From: Vampirovibrionales bacterium
GTDB lineage: Bacteria; Cyanobacteriota; Vampirovibrionia; Vampirovibrionales; JAJTHC01
Length of the DNA stretch: 64,000 bases
Reading direction: 5' to 3'
Assembly: GCA_044346175.1 (NCBI GenBank)
Contig: JBIIZQ010000005.1
Location: 20,818-84,817 of the forward strand
The position numbers and the translations under genes were made by a program. The notes beneath the pieces are model-generated. The model was not told where the DNA came from, did no database searches, and was given only the letters and a program-made list of their open reading frames with translations. This document shows positions 18,821 to 62,405 of the stretch, piece by piece (the first letter of the stretch is position 1; each line of letters opens with the position of its first letter).

Positions 18821-19974
18821 AAAGCGTAAGGCAACTTCAATAACAGGGAAAACAAGGAGGAAACGGTGACCTAAGTAAGCCTTAAAGACTCAAGGACCAA
18901 TGGAGTCTCCCATGTAGAAGCAGCCATGCAATAATGCGTATGTTTTAAAACCTGTGTTGTGACAATCAAGAGAGTCGTAAGGGGATGGTGTTTTAATGAA
19001 ACCACCATACATAAACCCACTGTTAAACATTTTACTTTCATGGAGAACCAGTGTTTGCATTAAAACTTAAAGCTGAATGGGGTTTAAGGTTAAAGATTTC
19101 GTGCAGTAACGAGAGATTGATGCACGTCGTGATACGATAAAACACCCTCAACAAAAAGCAGTGCGTCCAAAACCCAAAACACATGCTAGGGTTCAGGGCA
19201 GCATGTGAGTTGAAAGACTCACATTGACTGCGATACACTTATTCAAAAATCCAAAAAAGCAACATGACACAATCTTGTAGCACTCCACGGAGGTTATGAG
19301 GGTCTTGAAACCTCAACATACCACTTCCATGACAGTTGTTGGGTATTAACCTCAACAACCAAGTATCTCTGTGCCTTAAGCAGGATACTTTCGGCATCAC
19401 TTCCCTTTTTGTGAAGTTACTTTAGAGATGGCACTCTAAGAAGAAACCAGGCAGTTTCAAAGGCAACCGCACATACTTTTGAAGGATGCACCTCTACAGG
19501 GCAATGTTATTATGCGTGAAATAAACCCACGATACAAGCCCTTATCTCTCATAAAGAAAGCATGTAACGCAAAGATGTAACATCCTGTGAATGTCGGTCT
19601 GGTGTCGTCCTGTAACGAAATGTTACAATCGGGCTTTTTTGTCAAAAGCAATCTTATTTCAAAGGGTAAGTTTGATGAAACTTTGTTAAAATAACAGGAT
19701 GCTCTTCTACAGTGTTAATAATGTAATAATGTTGCATTAAATGTATCTTTTTCATATACTCTATTTGTATAGAGTACTTGAGATAGATATTTTAAGCTCT
19801 GTTTTAGGCTGATACGTTCTGGTTTCGGTAACTGCCTGAGTGATGATATTCGTTTTAAATGATGTGTGTGTGCTACCCATTTGCTTCATCACAATGTTGA
19901 AACCTAGCCATTCTTTTTTATTCTCTAGATTGTTCACGTATTTTAAAATTGTTTCATAAGGTCTTACAAAGGAT

Positions 19975-45644: not shown

Positions 45645-48600
45645 ATGATGAACTCAACGAACTTTTCCTCCCAAGGTGACTTTTCTCAAGATACCCCTAC
45701 CCAAGAAGCTGGGGGAGGACAAAGCACCTCGTTTTCAAAAAAAGAAGTACGTCGTACCCCTCTTGTCCCGCCTATTGCTTGGCTCTGTATGGGCGTTGTA
45801 CTCATTGGAGTTGTGTTTTTTGCGTTTCAGTCAAACCCAACGCTTCATGCCTTTTTGAGTGGGGTGACTGGGGAATCAAGTACCAGCGTTGGGAGTGTTG
45901 CCGAAAACTATTTCGGGCAGCTTTCTCGTCCGCTCATTCCTGAAAGCTCACTGTATTTACCCCTAGGGGTTCAGGCAATTATCTCTTTGGGGATTATTGT
46001 GGCCATGCTCACCATTGGTTGGGCAAAACCGCAAGCCCGCCGTATGATTATGCTGCTGACAGTATTCAGTGTGACACGTCAACTTATTTGGCGTGCTGTG
46101 GATACGATGGACTTTCAGACACAATCTCCCGTGGTACTTGCCGTAGGTTATGGGATTTTTGTGGCTGAAGTGCTTTCGTTTATTCATCTTATTTTTGGCT
46201 ACTTTCAGCTCTGGAGTCCGACGCATCGAGAAGCCCCAAAAATCAATACGTCTGACCCGTCTCGTTTGCCCTTTGTGGATGTATTTGTCCCGAGTTATAA
46301 CGAGCCTGTGAGTGTGGTTTACCGAACCTTGGTAGGGTGTATCGGTATGGATTACCCTAATAAGACGGTTTATTTGTGCGATGACAAGGCACGTCCTGAA
46401 ATGGCACAATTGGCTGAGAAACTAGGGGTACGTTATTTGTCTCGTGTGGATAACGTCCATGCAAAAGCAGGCAACTTAAACAACGCTTTGCGTCACTCTC
46501 GTGGGGAGTATTGCGTTATTTTTGATGCCGACCATGTGCCTTGCAAAAAGTTTATCAATGAGATTATCGGGTATTTTCAAGACCCCGAAATTGGCTTTGT
46601 CCAAACGCCTCAGCACTTTTTCACTCTTGACCCATTTCAACGTAACTTGTTAGCCGAGCAAATCGCTAATAACGAGCAAGACTTATTTTATCACGTGATT
46701 CAACCAGGGAATGACCACTGGGGAGCGGCGTTCTTTGCTGGGAGTGGTGCGATGTTCCGTCGTCAAGCTCTCAATGATGTTGGTGGGTTTGCCACTGAAA
46801 CCATTACCGAGGACTTCCATACCAGTATTCGTGTGCAAGCCTTGGGTTGGAAGTCTGCCTACCATCCTAAAGACCTTGCCGCAGGGCTGGCTCAAGACTC
46901 CTATGCCGACTTTGTCAAGCAACGTCTACGTTGGGCAAGAGGGATGACCCAGGTTCTCTTTTATGATAACCCTCTCTTTAAGCGCGGCTTAAATTTGGCA
47001 CAGCGCATGTGTTACTTCACCAGTATTTTATACTTCTTCAATGCGATTCATCGTGTGGTATTCCTTACGGCACCTCTTTTCTTCCTTGTGTTTGGTTTAA
47101 TGACCATTAACGCAGGCTTCCTTGAGGTTGTGGTGTACTATTTACCTTCCTTTGTGTGCTTGTTTTTTGGCTACAGTGTGCTTACGTATGGTTTCAGACA
47201 CACGTTCTGGTCAGAAGTGTATGAATCTGCAACGTGTATTGACCTTTTATGTGCCACGGTAGGTACGATTCTTAGCCCTAAGGGTAAAATCTTTAACGTG
47301 ACCCCCAAGGGTGGTACCAACGCACAAACGGTGTTTCATTGGCAGTCTGTGTGGGTACAGATTTTTCTTACCGTGGTAAGTGTCTTTGGGATTTTTATGG
47401 GGGTTTTCCGAGCCTTAACCACTCCCAGTTATGTAGGCGGTATTTTTACGAACCTCTTCTGGACAGTGTATAACATTACCTTGCTTGTTGGGGCTTTCTT
47501 TGTGGCTCAAGAGCGTCCACAACTACGTTTAAACCCTCGTATTGACCGTCGTATCCGTTGTGACCTTCGTCTTTTGGATGGGTCTATCGCTGTAGGGTAC
47601 ACCACCAATATTTCCGAGAATGGGCTTGCCATGGAGTTTGAAGAACCCGTGCCTGTTTCAGGGACGATGGCACTCAAAGTACTGGATTGGGAAACCAACG
47701 AAATTAGCTTCTTGAGCGTCCAGGCGGTTCGTAGCGTGATGGATGAACAAGGCAAGCATTATGTCGGGTTCCGAGTCGTCAACCGTACCGAGGAGCAACA
47801 CCGCAAGCTTATTTATCATATGTTTGGGTCTGCCGAAGCGTGGCACCACGACCAAACGGCACTTACACCGCTGAGTGCCTATAAATCCTTCATTGAAAGT
47901 CCGATGCGTCTTTCCACCATTGAGCAGATGACCTTCCGCCGTCGTAGTCCCCGTTTCCGTGCCAGCTTACAAGTGCGTCTTTTCAGTGGTACGCAGGATT
48001 ACTCCGCTACAACGATTGATGTTTCTGAAAGTGGCTTGCTCCTAATGATGTATCATCCTAAGGAAAACCTATTACAATCACGGGTTGATATTCAAATCCA
48101 GTGGAGTAATGGCTCCGTAGGTACTTTACAAGGGATTGTAAAACGGGTTGACCCCATGCTAGGTACCCCTGGTGCTTTCAAACTTGCCCTTAACTTTGTT
48201 GACCTCAGTCGTGAGCAGCGTCAAGCACTGATTAGTCAATTATTTGGTCCTCGTCCTGGGGTTGTACGTGTGGCACCGCCTTCACACCTCATGATTGGCT
48301 GTAAAGTACAAAACGCCCAAGGACAAACCGTAGCCGGTGTGACGCAAGAGGTGAGCGAAATGGGTATCAGGCTTCTTCTGAATCAATCGCTTCCTGTTGA
48401 GATGCACGAGGAAGTTTCCATTATGCTCCACTGGGAGCAAACACCCCATGTTAAAGCGGGAGGGTATCCTCCGCAAGAGATGGAACAAGTCCCTCAGTCT
48501 AAAGTGTATAAGACCATTGTGGTGGGGTATCAGCACCCCAGTGCAGGTAATCCTCGAGCGGAGTTATTGCTATACTTTAAGGACATTAACTTGCAAAGTC

Positions 48601-48665
48601 TGGATGAAATCTCACAGTACTTGCATCAAAGTAACACCTTACTTGAAGCCGCTCAACGAGGTTAA
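45645..48665 (+). CDS. Processive family-2 glycosyltransferase (cellulose-synthase/BcsA-like) fused to tandem C-terminal PilZ domains
   Basis: GT2 motifs are LCDDKARP (DD), FDADHVP (DxD), ITEDFHT (TED), and KQRLRWARG (QxxRW), with multiple TM helices flanking the catalytic domain. At least two PilZ units are present: (RIDRRIR...NISENG) and (RRRSPRFR...DVSESG). A third degenerate one may also be present. Confidence 0.75.
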   Translation: MMNSTNFSSQGDFSQDTPTQEAGGGQSTSFSKKEVRRTPLVPPIAWLCMGVVLIGVVFFAFQSNPTLHAFLSGVTGESSTSVGSVAENYFGQLSRPLIPESSLYLPLGVQAIISLGIIVAMLTIGWAKPQARRMIMLLTVFSVTRQLIWRAVDTMDFQTQSPVVLAVGYGIFVAEVLSFIHLIFGYFQLWSPTHREAPKINTSDPSRLPFVDVFVPSYNEPVSVVYRTLVGCIGMDYPNKTVYLCDDKARPEMAQLAEKLGVRYLSRVDNVHAKAGNLNNALRHSRGEYCVIFDADHVPCKKFINEIIGYFQDPEIGFVQTPQHFFTLDPFQRNLLAEQIANNEQDLFYHVIQPGNDHWGAAFFAGSGAMFRRQALNDVGGFATETITEDFHTSIRVQALGWKSAYHPKDLAAGLAQDSYADFVKQRLRWARGMTQVLFYDNPLFKRGLNLAQRMCYFTSILYFFNAIHRVVFLTAPLFFLVFGLMTINAGFLEVVVYYLPSFVCLFFGYSVLTYGFRHTFWSEVYESATCIDLLCATVGTILSPKGKIFNVTPKGGTNAQTVFHWQSVWVQIFLTVVSVFGIFMGVFRALTTPSYVGGIFTNLFWTVYNITLLVGAFFVAQERPQLRLNPRIDRRIRCDLRLLDGSIAVGYTTNISENGLAMEFEEPVPVSGTMALKVLDWETNEISFLSVQAVRSVMDEQGKHYVGFRVVNRTEEQHRKLIYHMFGSAEAWHHDQTALTPLSAYKSFIESPMRLSTIEQMTFRRRSPRFRASLQVRLFSGTQDYSATTIDVSESGLLLMMYHPKENLLQSRVDIQIQWSNGSVGTLQGIVKRVDPMLGTPGAFKLALNFVDLSREQRQALISQLFGPRPGVVRVAPPSHLMIGCKVQNAQGQTVAGVTQEVSEMGIRLLLNQSLPVEMHEEVSIMLHWEQTPHVKAGGYPPQEMEQVPQSKVYKTIVVGYQHPSAGNPRAELLLYFKDINLQSLDEISQYLHQSNTLLEAAQRG

Positions 48666-50452: not shown

Positions 50453-51278
50453 TACCCTTCTATTAAAAAAGCAAAAAAAGGTTTGAACACTTCAAAGAGA
50501 GTTAATAGACGTGTAGAGAAAAACAAACCCCGTAACCATACCAAAGAGCCTTGGCAGGGCATAGGTTTGAAGGTTCAGAAGAGGGCAATCACACCGAGAT
50601 AGAAGAGAGCGGTTGTATAAAGCGTTTGGACAATAACAGCGGAAAGACATCCCGAATAAAGCAAACGGTTCGTCTTTTGGAGGCGTAGACATGTAAAACC
50701 GCAGACCCGTCCTGATGAGAAGTCATAAAAAGGATTGACAAAGCTTCAGAAGCACTTCAAAAAGTAAACATGCTCACATGACTGAAACGTTTGTTAAAAC
50801 TTTGCGACACCATTCTTTAGACCATTCAGGGACGATACTGAAGCGATACAAACAGAACTCACCTCTTGGTAGGAGCAATCAAGATAAACTTCAAACAACA
50901 TACCAAGTAACCAAGCAATCAAGCCCAAAAAGTCAAAAGTCAATTTTAAGTTTAAGAATTTAAACTTAAAATTCAAAATAACTTCGCTACATACGAACAC
51001 ACTATCCTTTTTTATGTTACATAAACATTCATCTAACGAGGGGGAAGGTTTCATTTTAAGAGTTACCAGCTTGCCCCAAAATGCTTACATGATTATGCAA
51101 CACGACTTTTTACATTGAAAAAATGTCTATGCGATAACAACGTTTATAAGTAAAGTATACGCTATTTTTTAATGGACGTGAAGCATTTTTAAGATTTTTA
51201 TGGCAAACATGTCATAAAATACGTCATACAGTGTAGATTGTAACACTATTGTTACAATCTTACTTTTTATCTGTGGGT

Positions 51279-52211
51279 TTAAGCCGTCGTTTTGTTTCGT
51301 AGAAGATACATGAGTGCCATTAAAACACTCGTGATAATAAGAAAGGGATAGATGGTAAGCAACACGAGTTGCCAAGCATCATGGGCTAAAACCCCTAGGG
51401 TACTCATTGGTGGTTGTAAGCCAATCCCCACAAAACTCAAAGTAGATTCGGCAAGTATGCTGCGCATTAAAAGCAGACGACTATATACCATCAATCTTGG
51501 CACAACGTGAGGTAGGCTGTAACGTAAACCAAAACGTAGTGCATTGCCCCCAAAAGTCTCATAAGCCTCGGAAGCCGTCGTATGTTTTAATTCCAAAACA
51601 CCTTGTGCGACCAAACGTGCAACATCGCTTGCATGGAGGAGTCCGATGGTGGTACCCATAAGACACGCCTTCACATAAGTTTCACTTACAGCGGTGTCAA
51701 GCCCCAAAGAGAACCAATGACTCATCGTGTGATTCTGGGCTGCCGAGGGGAGTTGTGTCCATAGCATGGAGGCAAGCAATAGCCAAAGTAAACTAGGTAC
51801 GGTATCCCACAATTGCAAAGCTTCTTTTAACCACTGACCCCACCAACGATGGTACCCCTCTCCCCATAATAGCCCTACAGGCACGCCTACCAGCCAACCT
51901 ACTAGGATACTCCACACCCCTAATCCTACTGAGACCCAAACGCCCAACCCTACCCTAGCCCACATGCTTCGCCCTAAGTCATCCGTCCCCAACCAAGCAA
52001 ATAAAGCCCCCCTCTCCCATAAGGCTTCTCCTGGTGCCTGAAGTAAATGATCATGATGCAAAGCGTTGGCATCAAAGCATAAAGCACCTATCCCCCAAAG
52101 TAACACATACCCTAGTAGACTCATATCATGCCATGATAAGCCCTTTTTGAGGGATAACAATGCTTGGAATGTAGGATGCAACAAGGGGCGTGCTTTAGAA
52201 ACTGGTGGCAT
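51279..52211 (-). CDS. ABC transporter permease, OppC/DppC-type (binding-protein-dependent)
   Basis: WLGTDDLGRS motif and the EAA-like loop ASEAYETFGGNALRFGLRYSLPHVVP...LSFVGIGLQPP. No cognate ATPase or second permease lies adjacent. Confidence 0.65.
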   Translation of the reverse strand: MPPVSKARPLLHPTFQALLSLKKGLSWHDMSLLGYVLLWGIGALCFDANALHHDHLLQAPGEALWERGALFAWLGTDDLGRSMWARVGLGVWVSVGLGVWSILVGWLVGVPVGLLWGEGYHRWWGQWLKEALQLWDTVPSLLWLLLASMLWTQLPSAAQNHTMSHWFSLGLDTAVSETYVKACLMGTTIGLLHASDVARLVAQGVLELKHTTASEAYETFGGNALRFGLRYSLPHVVPRLMVYSRLLLMRSILAESTLSFVGIGLQPPMSTLGVLAHDAWQLVLLTIYPFLIITSVLMALMYLLRNKTTA

Positions 52212-52324
52212 GGGATACGGGAGATTCTATTTGGAAAGCATGAAATACGATGGATTGAGGATAGCATGGCAATCCGAAACGACTTAATGTTTTTATAATA
52301 ATATAAATAAAAAAGATACAGTCG

Positions 52325-52353
52325 TTGATAGTTGCATTTATCTTTGTTTTAAT
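52325..52353 (+). promoter_or_regulatory. Candidate sigma70-like promoter (TTGATA, 17 nt spacer, TTTAAT) for gene 52432
   Basis: Read directly in the AT-rich divergent intergenic region. A strong RBS (AGGAG) lies 9-10 nt before the ATG at 52432. Confidence 0.35.
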
Positions 52354-52431
52354 TTTTGTTTTTTGTATTTTATGATTCATGATAAGTTAATCCGTTCGTT
52401 AGAAAAAAGATTACAGGAGTAAACGTAAGCC

Positions 52432-52815
52432 ATGACAAGCCTCGGATTTTGCCAACCTACTGCCAACTATTGCCGTCCTCAATTTGGTGGATTTCATAGA
52501 GGCTACGCCCAAGGGTATTATCAAGGAGCTGCGAATATGAATCATCAGTGGCATAACTGGTACAACAATGCTTTTTGTCAGCCTCAAACATGGCAGTCTT
52601 CCTATTGTTTACCTAGTACTTACACCAATAGCTGGGCGAATGCCAGTGCTTATGCCAATGCGGGTAGTTGGGGTGGTAACGCCTATGCGAATGCGTATGC
52701 TTATGCAGGGGCAGGCTCTGGAGCCAATGCGTATGCCTATGCCAATGCGAGTGCAGGAAGCTGGGGCGGTAATGCCTATGCGAATGCGTACGCTTATGCA
52801 GGAGCTTGGAGCTAA
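52432..52815 (+). CDS. Small Cys-containing Tyr/Asn/Ala/Gly-rich repeat protein (127 aa; ~31-aa repeat ...SWGGNAYANAYAYAGA...)
   Basis: It has a good RBS, a candidate promoter and a strong terminator immediately downstream. The DNA carries ~93-bp tandem repeats. Overlapping ORFs in other frames (including a His-rich reverse frame) are by-products of the repeats. Confidence 0.5.
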   Translation: MTSLGFCQPTANYCRPQFGGFHRGYAQGYYQGAANMNHQWHNWYNNAFCQPQTWQSSYCLPSTYTNSWANASAYANAGSWGGNAYANAYAYAGAGSGANAYAYANASAGSWGGNAYANAYAYAGAWS

Positions 52816-52862
52816 CCATACGCTGGTGCTTGAACCTTCAGGCTTCAACGATGCTCACAAAC

Positions 52863-52894
52863 CCCCGATACCGTACTTGGTATCGGGGATTTTG
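52863..52894. terminator. Rho-independent terminator (10-bp GC-rich stem followed by ATTTTG), possibly bidirectional
   Basis: CCCCGATACCgtacttGGTATCGGGGattttg lies between the stop of 52432..52815 and the convergent alaS stop (52901). Confidence 0.7.
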
Positions 52895-52900
52895 CGTGTA

Positions 52901-55732
52901 CTACAGTTTTTGAGCCAAGCTAAACTTTAAGTTTGCCAAAGCCTCTGCGGCGTTTTCACCCTGTTTACCCCCTGCCATGGCAAGTGTGGGTTTACCCCCG
53001 CCGCCACCACCGCAGGCCGTGGCAAGTTCCTTTACGAGTTGCCCCGCCTGGAAGCCAGCTTGTACTAACAAAGGCGATACAGCACACACAAACTGTGCCG
53101 CTTGGGTGTCGGTATTCAGGCTACCCAAAAGCAAAACACTCCGTGTATGTTGGGTTTTAGAAGCAAAGGTTTCAGCAAGCTTTCGTAAAATGTCGCTGGG
53201 TGTATCGTGGAGTAATGTCCCGACAACATGAGGTGCTTCAGGCTTAGCAAGAATGGTTTCTAACCAGCTTTGAAGGGTACCTTCGTGTAGCTTTACTTGG
53301 AGTTGTAGCACTTGCTTCTCAAGCACTTTTTGTTGCTCTATAAGGCTTACAATACGAGTATCAAGCTCTTTGACAGGGACGTTAAGCACCTCGGAACAAC
53401 GTTGAAGCAAGGTTTGTTCCTGCTTGAGCAGTTTATAGGCAAGTTCCCCTACGACGAATTCAATACGACGCACCCCTGCCGCAATGCTTGCTTCGCTTAG
53501 AAGTTTGATAGAACCAATACGACCAAGCTCGGTGATATGTGTACCCCCGCACAGTTCAAGAGAGGCATCGCCATAGCGAACCACACGAACCGTTTCGCCA
53601 TATTTTTCGTCAAAGGCTGCCACTGCTCCTGAAGCTTTGGCTTCTTCAAGCGGTAGGTTCATGACTTCACGAGGATGGTTTTCTCTTACCCATTTGTTGA
53701 CAAGAAACTCGACACGATTGAGTTCGGCTTGGGTAAGTCCTCGTTCAAAAGTGAAGTCAAACCTTGCCCCTGTTGGACTAACGTACGACCCTGCCTGCTG
53801 TACTAAACCCTCTTGCTTGGGGTCAAGAATTTTACGTAAAGCGGCATTCACTAAATGGGTGGCTGTATGGTGAGCGGCACTACGAATACGGTACACGGGT
53901 TCCACGATAGCGGTCATGGTAGTGCCAACCTGTAGAGGGTACTCTCCTTGGTCAAACTTGCATCGATGGACAATTAGTTCCCCTCTTCGGTACGTATCCA
54001 ACACCAATGCTGTCGTACCCTGAGGACCTTCCTCAAGAACAAGGGTACCTTGGTCGCCTACTTGACCGCCACCCTCAGGGTAAAATGGGGTGTTATCGAG
54101 AATACACTCAAACACCGTGTTCGTCCCGTGGATACTCCCAACCGATTCACCTTCCACGATGAGGGCTTGAATGGTCACGGTGGTGTTTAGGGTATCGTAG
54201 CCTACAAACGTACTGCTACCCACTTCACGTAAAAGGTCACTGTAGAGGGTGTCTGAAACAATCATCGCATTTTTACGATTGGCACGAGACAGTGCTTTTG
54301 CCTGCTGAAGTGCTTCTTCATACCCCTGTGTATCCACGGTGTACCCCTGAGCCTCAAGGACATCTAGGGTTAAATCGAGAGGGAATCCGTAAGTATCATA
54401 GAGTTTAAAAGCCGCTTGTCCCTGTAAACATTGTGCCGTAAAGTACGCTTCAGGCTGTGCAAGCCATTCTTGTAGTAACCCCATACCTCTTTCAAGGGTT
54501 TCAAGAAAACGATGCTCTTCCTTGGTGAGCATTTGTACGATACGGGACTGGCTTTTTACAAGTTCAGGGTAGGCTGTGCCGTAGGCTTCTACCAGTGTAG
54601 CCACTAATTGACCTAAAAAGGGCGTTTTAAGTCCAAGCCATTGATAGGCTTGGAGGAAGGCACGACGAATCATCATCCGTAAGATATAGCCACGCCCTTC
54701 ATTGCTGGGGACTACCCCATCGGCTATGGCAAAGCTCATGAAGCGAATATGGTCTGCTACAATACGGCATGCCACGGCAGGATTTTCATTGGAAGAGGTA
54801 CTTGCTCTGAACTGTGCAAGGTCCGCCACTTTGGCGACCAAGCCTGATAGTAAATCGGTCTCAAAGGTATTGTCTTTATCTTGCACCACCATCGTGATAC
54901 GTTCAAGCCCCATACCTGTATCGACGTTTTTATGTTCCAAGGGTGTTAGCGTACCAGCCTCATCCTTGAAAAACTCCATAAAGACCAAGTTCCAAATTTC
55001 CATGTAACGGCGACAGTCAACCGTTTCACATTGGTCAGGGTGACATCCTGTTGTGGGTGTGGGCTTTTGGCAAGCAACGTCTCCCGATTGGCACCCTGGG
55101 CATACACGGTCAGGGCGGAGGGTGTCGAAATAAATCTCAGTACAGGGCCCGCAGGGACCCGTAGGGCCAGGAGGCCCCCAGAAGTTGTCCTTATCGCCAC
55201 GGCGTAAGATACGTTCAGGGGCAATCCCCACTTTGGTTTCCCAAATAAGAGCGGCTTCATCATCGCTATGATGCACCGTTACCCAAAGCCGTTCCTTGGG
55301 GAGTTGTAATACCTCTGTGATAAACATCCATGCCCAAGGAATCACTTCTTCTTTGAAGTAATCGCCAAAGCTAAAGTTTCCCAGCATCTCAAAAAACGTA
55401 TGATGGCAAGGGGTTCGTCCTACGGCACGCAGGTCAGAAGCCTTACCACTAACTCTTGCACATTTTTGACTACTCGTAGCCCGAGGCGGGTTAGGGGCGG
55501 GTTCTAAACCCATAAAAATAGGGACAAAGGGTAACATCCCAGCGGGTGTGAGTAACACGGTAGGGTTTTTTTGTGGTACTAAGCTGGCACTTGCCATCCG
55601 ACGATGTCCGAGCTTTTCTTCAAAAAAGCTAAGAAACGCTTCTCGAACCTCATGCCCTGTTTTGAAGGGTATGTTGGGGCAAACCTCTGCAAGGGTGTGA
55701 CAGGTAGAATCGAGCGTGTGCATAGCCAGCAA
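52901..55732 (-). CDS. alaS: Alanine--tRNA ligase
   Basis: Full-length class II AlaRS: the catalytic core, the editing-domain zinc motif HHTATHLVNAALR, and a C-terminal DHHA1-like domain with GGGGG. The first ~20 aa of the ORF call are probably upstream of the true start. Confidence 0.9.
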   Translation of the reverse strand: MLAMHTLDSTCHTLAEVCPNIPFKTGHEVREAFLSFFEEKLGHRRMASASLVPQKNPTVLLTPAGMLPFVPIFMGLEPAPNPPRATSSQKCARVSGKASDLRAVGRTPCHHTFFEMLGNFSFGDYFKEEVIPWAWMFITEVLQLPKERLWVTVHHSDDEAALIWETKVGIAPERILRRGDKDNFWGPPGPTGPCGPCTEIYFDTLRPDRVCPGCQSGDVACQKPTPTTGCHPDQCETVDCRRYMEIWNLVFMEFFKDEAGTLTPLEHKNVDTGMGLERITMVVQDKDNTFETDLLSGLVAKVADLAQFRASTSSNENPAVACRIVADHIRFMSFAIADGVVPSNEGRGYILRMMIRRAFLQAYQWLGLKTPFLGQLVATLVEAYGTAYPELVKSQSRIVQMLTKEEHRFLETLERGMGLLQEWLAQPEAYFTAQCLQGQAAFKLYDTYGFPLDLTLDVLEAQGYTVDTQGYEEALQQAKALSRANRKNAMIVSDTLYSDLLREVGSSTFVGYDTLNTTVTIQALIVEGESVGSIHGTNTVFECILDNTPFYPEGGGQVGDQGTLVLEEGPQGTTALVLDTYRRGELIVHRCKFDQGEYPLQVGTTMTAIVEPVYRIRSAAHHTATHLVNAALRKILDPKQEGLVQQAGSYVSPTGARFDFTFERGLTQAELNRVEFLVNKWVRENHPREVMNLPLEEAKASGAVAAFDEKYGETVRVVRYGDASLELCGGTHITELGRIGSIKLLSEASIAAGVRRIEFVVGELAYKLLKQEQTLLQRCSEVLNVPVKELDTRIVSLIEQQKVLEKQVLQLQVKLHEGTLQSWLETILAKPEAPHVVGTLLHDTPSDILRKLAETFASKTQHTRSVLLLGSLNTDTQAAQFVCAVSPLLVQAGFQAGQLVKELATACGGGGGGKPTLAMAGGKQGENAAEALANLKFSLAQKL

Positions 55733-61484: not shown

Positions 61485-62405
61485 ATGAATTCCTCTTTTC
61501 AAACTCTCCCTAACGCTACTGTTAAGCCTGACTGGCTCAAGGTGAAGCTGCGTACACACGAGCCTTGGCTACAGGATATGAAAAACCACGTCAAGCAACA
61601 GGGGCTTAGTACGGTGTGCCAAGAAGCCCAGTGTCCTAACCTCAGTGAGTGTTGGGCTGGGGGTACCGTCACACTGATGCTCATGGGGGATACCTGCACC
61701 CGAGGGTGTCGTTTTTGTAACGTTAAAACAGGAAATCCCCATGGCTGGTTGGATGAGGAAGAACCTCAAAAAGTAGCCCAAATGGTGGCACAAGGGGCTT
61801 GGCAGTATGTTGTTTTAACCGTTGTAAACCGAGACGACCTTCCTGATGCTGGGGCGGGGCATATTGTTCGGGTATTGGAAGCCATTCGTGAAGCCTCGCC
61901 GAGTACGGTGATAGAAACGCTCCTTCCTGATTTTAATGGCCAGGTTACTCAATTTCAGCAAATCCAAGCCACAAGTCCCACACCCCCTGAAGTGATTGCC
62001 CATAATATGGAAACGGTCGAGCGGTTAACCCCCCTTGTAAGAGATAGACGTGCGACGTATGCTCAAAGCCTTGCACTTTTACAATGGTTTAGTGACCACC
62101 GTATAGGCAAACAACTTGTTAAGACCTCTTTGATGGTAGGTTTAGGTGAAACCGATATAGAGCTTGACCAAACCCTTGAAGCCCTTCGTGTTGCTGGGGT
62201 GGATATTGTGACGTTTGGGCAGTATTTACAGCCTACGCCTAAACATTTACCTGTGGTGACTTACCAGCCACCCGAGTGGTTTGCACATTGGGAGACCCGT
62301 GCAAAAGAGGTTTTTGGATTTAAAGGGGTTTTTGCGGGTAGCTTTGTCCGAAGCTCCTACAAAGCGGGTGCTTTATACCAAGAGGTTTTCGCTCGTAGGG
62401 GATAA
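61485..62405 (+). CDS. lipA: Lipoyl synthase
   Basis: N-terminal auxiliary cluster CQEAQCPNLSECW and radical-SAM CTRGCRFC, with a conserved C-terminal region. Confidence 0.9.
   Translation: MNSSFQTLPNATVKPDWLKVKLRTHEPWLQDMKNHVKQQGLSTVCQEAQCPNLSECWAGGTVTLMLMGDTCTRGCRFCNVKTGNPHGWLDEEEPQKVAQMVAQGAWQYVVLTVVNRDDLPDAGAGHIVRVLEAIREASPSTVIETLLPDFNGQVTQFQQIQATSPTPPEVIAHNMETVERLTPLVRDRRATYAQSLALLQWFSDHRIGKQLVKTSLMVGLGETDIELDQTLEALRVAGVDIVTFGQYLQPTPKHLPVVTYQPPEWFAHWETRAKEVFGFKGVFAGSFVRSSYKAGALYQEVFARRG

Follow-up and report, generated by a model that had tools for sequence, protein, structure and literature searches.

The crystalline repeats of silk fibroin consist of (Gly-Ala)n-Ser/Tyr units, such as GAGAGS and GAGAGY in Bombyx mori. 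Curli (CsgA and CsgB), FapC, TasA and the chaplins are secreted bacterial functional amyloids, built of small repeat proteins with a high content of Asn, Gly, Ala, Tyr and Ser. Prion-like domains (the yeast Sup35 N domain, the low-complexity region of FUS and Clostridium botulinum Rho) are uncharged and dominated by Tyr, Asn, Gln, Gly, Ser and Ala. A small open reading frame (ORF) whose product resembles each of these in part is present in a 64,000-nucleotide stretch of DNA from a Vampirovibrionales bacterium (GenBank assembly GCA_044346175.1, contig JBIIZQ010000005.1, positions 20,818 to 84,817, forward strand), the whole of which is referred to below as the window. The ORF lies at 52432..52815 on the + strand, stop codon included, and its product of 127 amino acids (aa) is given in the ORF listing as MTSLGFCQPTANYCRPQFGGFHRGYAQGYYQGAANMNHQWHNWYNNAFCQPQTWQSSYCLPSTYTNSWANASAYANAGSWGGNAYANAYAYAGAGSGANAYAYANASAGSWGGNAYANAYAYAGAWS. 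It is interpreted here as a real, monocistronic, lineage-restricted (orphan) gene of an uncultured member of the Vampirovibrionales, translated in the 127-aa frame, with a product that would self-associate through β-sheets. The probability of this interpretation as a whole is estimated at about 0.5.

The product is not a member of the curli family, and its likeness to the silks, to curli and other functional amyloids and to the prion-like domains is one of composition and predicted strand-turn-strand architecture only. Features in common with silk fibroin are a strict two-residue periodicity in which every other residue is small, so that a β-strand would have one flat small-residue face, interspersed Tyr and Ser, short Gly-containing turns, and repeats without charged residues. 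The two differ in that the invariant residue here is Ala, partnered by Tyr, Asn, Ser or Gly, and in that only four short segments are present, in a 127-aa bacterial protein. Sequence homology and a secretion signal are both lacking, and the resemblance is by analogy only. In common with curli and the other functional amyloids are the small size, the repeats and the preferred residues. The G-G-N-x-A element of the product recalls the curlin G-x-G-N-x-A, and its predicted strand-turn-strand repeats could stack into a cross-β structure. However, the repeat is 31 aa long versus 19-23 in curlin and does not preserve the positions of the Gln/Asn ladder, and an N-terminal Sec signal peptide was not found. 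The curlin repeat profile PF07012 (Curlin_rpt) was not matched by hmmscan against Pfam-A (E<=10, 0 families), and no csgB/E/F/G-like or fap genes were found near the small gene. A preliminary description of the sequence had spoken of adhesin-like repeats and of a possible surface or biofilm matrix component; such a role is not supported, as neither an export signal, nor adjacent secretion genes, nor a match to curli or another family was found. As in prion-like domains, the residues are almost all uncharged and drawn from the same set, and disorder is predicted for the first 70 residues. In contrast to these domains, the entire protein is of low complexity rather than a domain on a folded enzyme, and the Ala-alternating repeats and four Cys residues are atypical.

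Results

Coding status and reading frame

ORFs of at least 127 codons arose in 17 of 2000 shuffles of the region 52212-52900 (0.85%). Coding potential was scored with a 3-periodic second-order Markov model trained on 31 long ORFs of the window, which assigned 99% of 198-nt pieces of genes to the correct frame. Over the whole ORF the 127-aa frame scored +16.8 bits, versus -18.8 for the next frame. It was the best of the six frames both in the non-repetitive N-terminal half (+1.3 versus -19.3 for the next frame) and in the repetitive C-terminal half (+16.1 versus +1.5). Three rival ORFs are open over the repeats, as the preliminary description had pointed out: a 120-aa ORF at 52568..52930 in the +2 frame, a 79-aa ORF at 52609..52848 on the minus strand and a His-rich 68-aa ORF at 52613..52819, also on the minus strand. 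Scored over their own extents by the same model, these reached +3.6, -29.1 and -12.5 bits.

The ~93-bp repeats reported earlier are present as two copies, at 52636..52712 (+, encoding ANASAYANAGSWGGNAYANAYAYAG) and 52729..52805 (+, encoding AYAYANASAGSWGGNAYANAYAYAG). Their starts are 93 bp apart and they are 82% identical over 77 nt, which represents one duplication and no longer array. Tandem Repeats Finder returned only short period-6 runs, a reflection of alternating GCN-TAT/AAT codons. Twelve of the 20 differences between the copies fall at codon position 3 of the 127-aa frame (binomial P=0.013). Counted as codon changes in this frame, 11 are synonymous and 5 non-synonymous, and in the 18 codons for AGSWGGNAYANAYAYAGA all eight differences are synonymous. 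Read in the His-rich and 79-aa antisense frames, the same third-position sites fall on codon positions 2 and 1, and the sole other frame with third positions in common is full of stop codons. The synonymous-site bias between the copies indicates selection on the peptide sequence, and the internal duplication by itself suffices to assign the coding frame.

A second, shorter element is repeated in the N-terminal half of the translation. Its first copy, F-C-Q-P-x3-Y-C-R-P (F-C-Q-P-TAN-Y-C-R-P), occupies residues 6-16 (52447..52479, +) and its second, F-C-Q-P-x6-Y-C-L-P (F-C-Q-P-QTWQSS-Y-C-L-P), residues 48-61 (52573..52614, +). The seven codons common to both are the same but for three third-position changes, all synonymous (TGC/TGT, CAA/CAG, TGC/TGT). 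The coding frame, which had at first been regarded as uncertain, is now largely settled as the 127-aa frame by the Markov model and the substitutions between the repeat copies. On four independent lines (chance, coding statistics, internal duplication and signals), it is likely that this is a translated gene in the 127-aa frame.

Expression signals and start codon

The G+C content is ~30% in the 220 bp upstream of the ORF, which bears out the AT-rich leader of the preliminary description, and rises to 47-54% within the 127-aa ORF, as in the surrounding genes. An in-frame stop codon 3 nt 5' of ATG 52432 excludes a longer N-terminus. The Shine-Dalgarno (SD) motif AGGAG described earlier is present at 52415..52419 (+), but its spacer to ATG 52432 is 12 nt and not 9-10 nt. 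A second motif, AAGGAG at 52523-28, precedes the in-frame ATG 52537 (Met36) with an 8-nt spacer (whole element 52523..52539, +); a start here would give a 92-aa product. AGGAG-type motifs were found upstream of the first start codon in only ~4 of the 43 long ORFs of the window, most of which have no SD motif within 25 nt of that codon, and this rarity makes the motifs at both candidate starts notable. Public annotations differ in the start codon, the 127-aa product being called by JGI and the 92-aa product from Met36 by ENA and NCBI (GCA_041443045.1).

A candidate promoter, TTGATA-17 nt-TTTAAT, can be read from the sequence at 52325..52353 (+; -35 at 52325-30, -10 at 52348-53), with TG two bases 5' of the -10 element. 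The consensus scan missed it because its -10 element is without the conserved A at position 2, and in the region scanned promoter-like sites were not in excess (3 versus 2.4 expected from shuffles). The sequence that had been reported as a promoter is therefore there, but such sites do not exceed chance. The candidate -35 element is overlapped by I2, an AT-rich inverted repeat in the divergent promoter region (52278..52326; 17-nt arms, 82% complementary, 15-nt gap), which is possibly an operator. Downstream, the reported terminator corresponds to an intrinsic-terminator-like hairpin at 52863..52888 (+) with 11 pairs (7 G-C), a 4-nt loop and the T-rich tail ATTTTGCGTG on the + strand. The hairpin begins 47 nt past the stop codon of the 127-aa ORF, and inverted repeat I3 spans the same stem. 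Coming from the other side, the convergent alaS ends immediately before the hairpin (stop at 52901); the two genes therefore share it, and it does not speak for the small gene by itself. The high expression previously assumed from these signals was not upheld, given the promoter score, the longer SD spacing and the better SD geometry of Met36.

Composition and predicted structure of the product

The 127-aa product contains no Asp, Glu, Lys, Ile or Val, and two Arg are its only charged residues. It has three His (residues 22, 38 and 41), 16 Tyr and 7 Trp, and a grand average of hydropathy of -0.54. Gln and Asn make up 18% of the residues, and Tyr, Gly, Ser, Gln and Asn together 52%; Ala accounts for 22% of the whole ORF and 38% of the C-terminal half. 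The N-terminal half (residues 1-66) is rich in Gln, Asn, Tyr, Gly, Trp and His and carries both copies of the motif F-C-Q-P-xn-Y-C-x-P. The four Cys residues counted earlier within the first 60 residues are at positions 7, 14, 49 and 59.

Residues 67-127 consist only of Ala, Gly, Tyr, Asn, Ser and Trp. They form four (Ala-X)n segments of 10-12 residues ((Ala-X)5-6) joined by the turns SWGG, GSG and SWGG, in the layout ANASAYANAG - SWGG - NAYANAYAYAGA - GSG - ANAYAYANASAG - SWGG - NAYANAYAYAGA - WS. Ala occupies the alternate position in 23 of 23 cases in the four segments. A single-sequence AlphaFold2 model, of low confidence, placed β-strands at residues 71-80, 83-92, 99-111 and 114-126 and left residues 1-70 as coil. 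On the Kyte-Doolittle scale the highest 19-residue mean was 0.13 and the first 25 residues averaged -0.46. No hydrophobic segment was found, at the N-terminus or elsewhere, and therefore neither a signal peptide nor a membrane anchor is present; the absence of a classical signal peptide had been recognized in the preliminary description.

Search for relatives

A word-seeded HMMER search of 5.8 billion proteins gave 0 matches. A phmmer search of 1.84 billion representatives gave just two (P0001, P0002), which were rejected as spurious matches to repeat proteins. No families were matched in Pfam, NCBIfam, PADLOC or PHROGs, NCBIfam and Pfam having been run on both the 127-aa and the 92-aa forms. 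PDB sequences returned only noise (best E 0.03, an amidase), and 0 matches were obtained in two metagenome scans, in a scan of viral contigs and in a tblastn search of plasmids and phages. Literature text searches returned nothing relevant and no record that joins the Vampirovibrionales with amyloid. These negatives are weaker than they appear, because the query itself is missing from the protein collection and the source contigs were missed by the metagenome scans: the exact 127-aa and 92-aa sequences are missing from the collection of 15 billion proteins, in which the neighbouring permease is present, the gene-position index lists both, and the two metagenome scans did not return the contigs that carry the gene.

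Obscuribacterales metagenome-assembled genomes (MAGs) encode a conserved Gly/Tyr/Ser-rich protein of ~255 aa with a signal peptide, ~4.3 kb downstream of alaS (12741-13514 in L002, ~13706 in L003 and ~12976 in L008). It was rejected as a relative of the small protein, since the match had an E value of 0.05 and the resemblance is compositional.

Neighbourhood and source of the locus

The 127-aa ORF is monocistronic. It is flanked by a divergent gene for an OppC-type ATP-binding cassette (ABC) permease at 51279..52211 (-) and by the convergent alaS, encoding alanyl-tRNA synthetase (AlaRS), at 52901..55732 (-). Besides these, the neighbouring genes encode a C92-like amidase, unknown proteins, MiaA and a polyprenyl synthase. 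The relatives of the AlaRS and the permease assign the genome to the Vampirovibrionales (Melainabacteria). AlaRS relatives in the genome collection are only ~42% identical, and a 59%-identical relative of the permease (L027) stands in another context, with two permease genes in tandem.

The DNA of the locus occurs without any difference in two further contigs, JGI 3300034104 (L001) and ENA ERZ27272058 (L028), and no recovered copy (L001, L028/L032) departs from the window at any position (100% identity). Identical DNA in at least three assemblies excludes an assembly artefact. The gene-position index also places the gene in JGI 3300059473 (a 139-kb contig) and in the NCBI MAG GCA_041443045.1.

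Several other features of the window were recorded. The OppC-type permease gene (BPD_transp_1, 51279-52211, -) stands alone, with no adjoining genes for a partner permease, an ATPase or a binding protein. Its start is overlapped by 17 nt by a 61-aa ORF at 52195-52380 (-), in the AT-rich promoter region, which is called by JGI, ENA and NCBI; this ORF is probably spurious because its coding score is negative (-6.8 bits). Between a 190-aa ORF and the permease gene lies a stretch of ~830 bp with very low G+C content (0.30-0.32; 50453-51278), with 0 ORFs of at least 100 aa and 0 Rfam matches. A BcsA-like cellulose synthase with PilZ domains, of the cyclic di-GMP-responsive type (1006 aa, 45645-48665, +), is encoded ~4 kb from the small gene in a separate operon. 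A lysine riboswitch (Rfam RF00168, 74.7 bits) is present at 19270-19504 (-).

Discussion

If the product is made, each (Ala-X)n segment may form a β-strand. The perfect alternation of Ala would, in a β-strand, place all Ala on one face and Tyr and Asn on the other. Together the strands would make up a β-meander, and copies of it would pack onto one another by their Ala faces, in the manner of silk β-crystallites, and by ladders of Tyr and Asn like those of amyloid steric zippers. This would yield a cross-β assembly resembling silk or amyloid, or else a condensate. Its location would probably be the cytoplasm, because neither an export signal nor export machinery is evident. The N-terminal half, with its Cys loops, His and Trp, might influence how the copies assemble, by way of its redox state or of bound metal. 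A self-assembling or amyloid-like nature is a reasonable inference from the sequence. The β-sheet mechanism as such, for which folding, self-assembly and location are all taken from the sequence pattern, is put forward tentatively. In its most specific form it would make the product a leaderless cytoplasmic mini-silk or functional amyloid of a non-photosynthetic relative of the cyanobacteria, with (Ala-Tyr/Asn)n strands that would assemble into cross-β fibres or a gel and need none of the known secretion systems for functional amyloids; this form is doubtful.

A number of observations weigh against the interpretation given at the outset. No neighbouring gene ties the small gene to a process. 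The confidence of the AlphaFold2 model was poor (mean pLDDT 42.6, predicted local distance difference test), and for this reason its strands are hardly independent of the pattern from which the strands were read. A simple codon-usage log-odds score did not separate the frames (+4.1 versus +2.6), although it is uninformative here because the amino-acid composition is so unusual. The N-terminal 35 codons scored about zero with the Markov model (-0.9 bits). Homologs that would allow a cross-species test of conservation, such as the ortholog comparison envisaged in the preliminary description, were not found in any frame. In the contigs fetched for the closest relatives, with AlaRS 83% identical (GCA_046080605.1, loci L029 and L030) and 65% identical (L031), no similar ORF was present and dnaB or other genes lay downstream of alaS; synteny is uninformative, because gene order in these genomes has changed to the left and right of alaS alike. 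The recovered copies of the locus are identical and therefore allow neither a population Ka/Ks test nor a test of repeat number.

These points bear most directly on the possibility that the ORF is spurious, and that a duplicated, hexamer-periodic (GCN-WAT)n low-complexity tract in non-coding DNA is by chance free of stop codons in several frames. Four of the six frames are open across the repeats, and the lack of homologs and of an equivalent ORF at alaS in the closest relatives, the non-discriminating codon usage, the near-zero N-terminal score and a promoter no better than chance are all as this explanation would have them. It is nevertheless considered unlikely. The non-repetitive N-terminal half is open on the + strand only in the 127-aa frame, which is there the best of the six by 20 bits. 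Neither the third-position bias between the repeat copies (P=0.013) nor the ORF length (0.85% of shuffles) fits a chance tract, SD motifs stand at both candidate starts, the G+C content steps up at the ORF, and removal of the gene would leave a gap of 689 bp between the neighbouring genes. A milder departure keeps the same gene and frame and starts translation at Met36 (52537), with 52432-52536 becoming part of the 5' leader; it is a variant of the orphan-gene interpretation and not an exclusive alternative to it. This start has the AAGGAG at an ideal spacing of 8 nt as against 12 nt for ATG 52432, it is the one called by ENA and NCBI, and the part of the ORF that begins with Met36 has a coding score of +17.2 bits compared with the -0.9 of codons 1-35. 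On the other hand, the frame is open back to the stop 3 nt before ATG 52432, a start with an AGGAG of its own, and the internal AAGGAG may be merely the codons for Q-G-A. Residues 6-16, upstream of Met36, repeat the Cys motif of residues 48-61, with changes in the shared codons at synonymous positions only, which points to conservation of the protein and argues that the N-terminal extension is translated. Met1 is on balance somewhat favoured over Met36, which is kept as the less probable start.

Other functions were weighed for a gene that is real. The product could be the precursor of a peptide that is modified or exported. One form of this would be a ribosomally synthesized and post-translationally modified peptide (RiPP) whose cores repeat Tyr, Trp and Asn and might, for instance, carry radical-SAM crosslinks of the cyclophane type at Y-A-N motifs; another would be a bacteriocin of the microcin kind, rich in Gly, Ala and Tyr, with cleavage following Gly19-Gly20. 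Similar compositions are found in class II microcins and in a number of RiPP precursors. Like class II microcins and double-glycine bacteriocins, the product is small, rich in Gly, Ala, Ser, Asn and Tyr and nearly uncharged, and contains Cys as well as a GG pair not far from its N-terminus (residues 19-20); its aromatic-x-Asn motifs are repeated. However, residues 1-20 (MTSLGFCQPTANYCRPQFGG) depart on inspection from the double-glycine leader consensus, in which only the GG pair fits (GG, GA or GS being expected at -2/-1): the hydrophobic residues at -4, -7 and -12 and the Glu at -8 are missing. No maturase, C39-peptidase ABC exporter, immunity gene or protease was found within ~10 kb on either side, and the sole radical-SAM gene in this range (61485..62405) encodes lipoyl synthase (NF004019 (PRK05481), 342 bits; TIGR00510, 333 bits against a cut-off of 310). 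No precursor family of NCBIfam or Pfam was matched, and the gene is monocistronic between divergent and convergent housekeeping genes. The precursor peptide named as an option in the preliminary description is accordingly very improbable. Less probable still is a regulatory element that is not a protein at all, such as an Ala-rich sensor ORF, a convergent antisense transcript modulating alaS or a small RNA. The high Ala content of the ORF, in particular of its C-terminal half, and its tail-to-tail arrangement with alaS, with the hairpin in common, would suit such an element. But classical attenuation is impossible, because the ORF lies past the 3' end of alaS and points towards it, rather than being part of its leader, and read-through would be halted at the hairpin. 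The RNA does not fold more stably than shuffled sequences (z=-1.06). The sole match in Rfam 15, to sraL on the minus strand, is below threshold (18 bits versus a gathering score of 39, E=0.27) and not above noise. The ORF is also missing in the relatives with 83% and 65% identical AlaRS, and the synonymous-site bias indicates selection at the level of the peptide.

Four narrower assignments were rejected. The product is not a lipoprotein, since Phe precedes Cys7 and no signal peptide was found. It is not a WXG100 protein, being neither helical nor charged, and not a pentapeptide-repeat protein, as the Leu/Phe core is absent and there were 0 Pfam matches. An Ala-sensing attenuator for alaS was dismissed because the orientation is wrong.

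Orphan ORFs of low complexity are common in sparsely sampled lineages. If the product of the small gene does not assemble, it would be one more uncharacterized orphan ORF, of a kind common in the genomes of uncultured lineages. If it is made and self-assembles, as the orphan-gene interpretation holds, it would be a very compact natural β-sheet material, of ~60 residues and six amino-acid types with perfect alternation of Ala, from a poorly studied lineage and with no relatives. This would bear on functional amyloids, on biomaterials and on how new genes arise out of low-complexity repeats.

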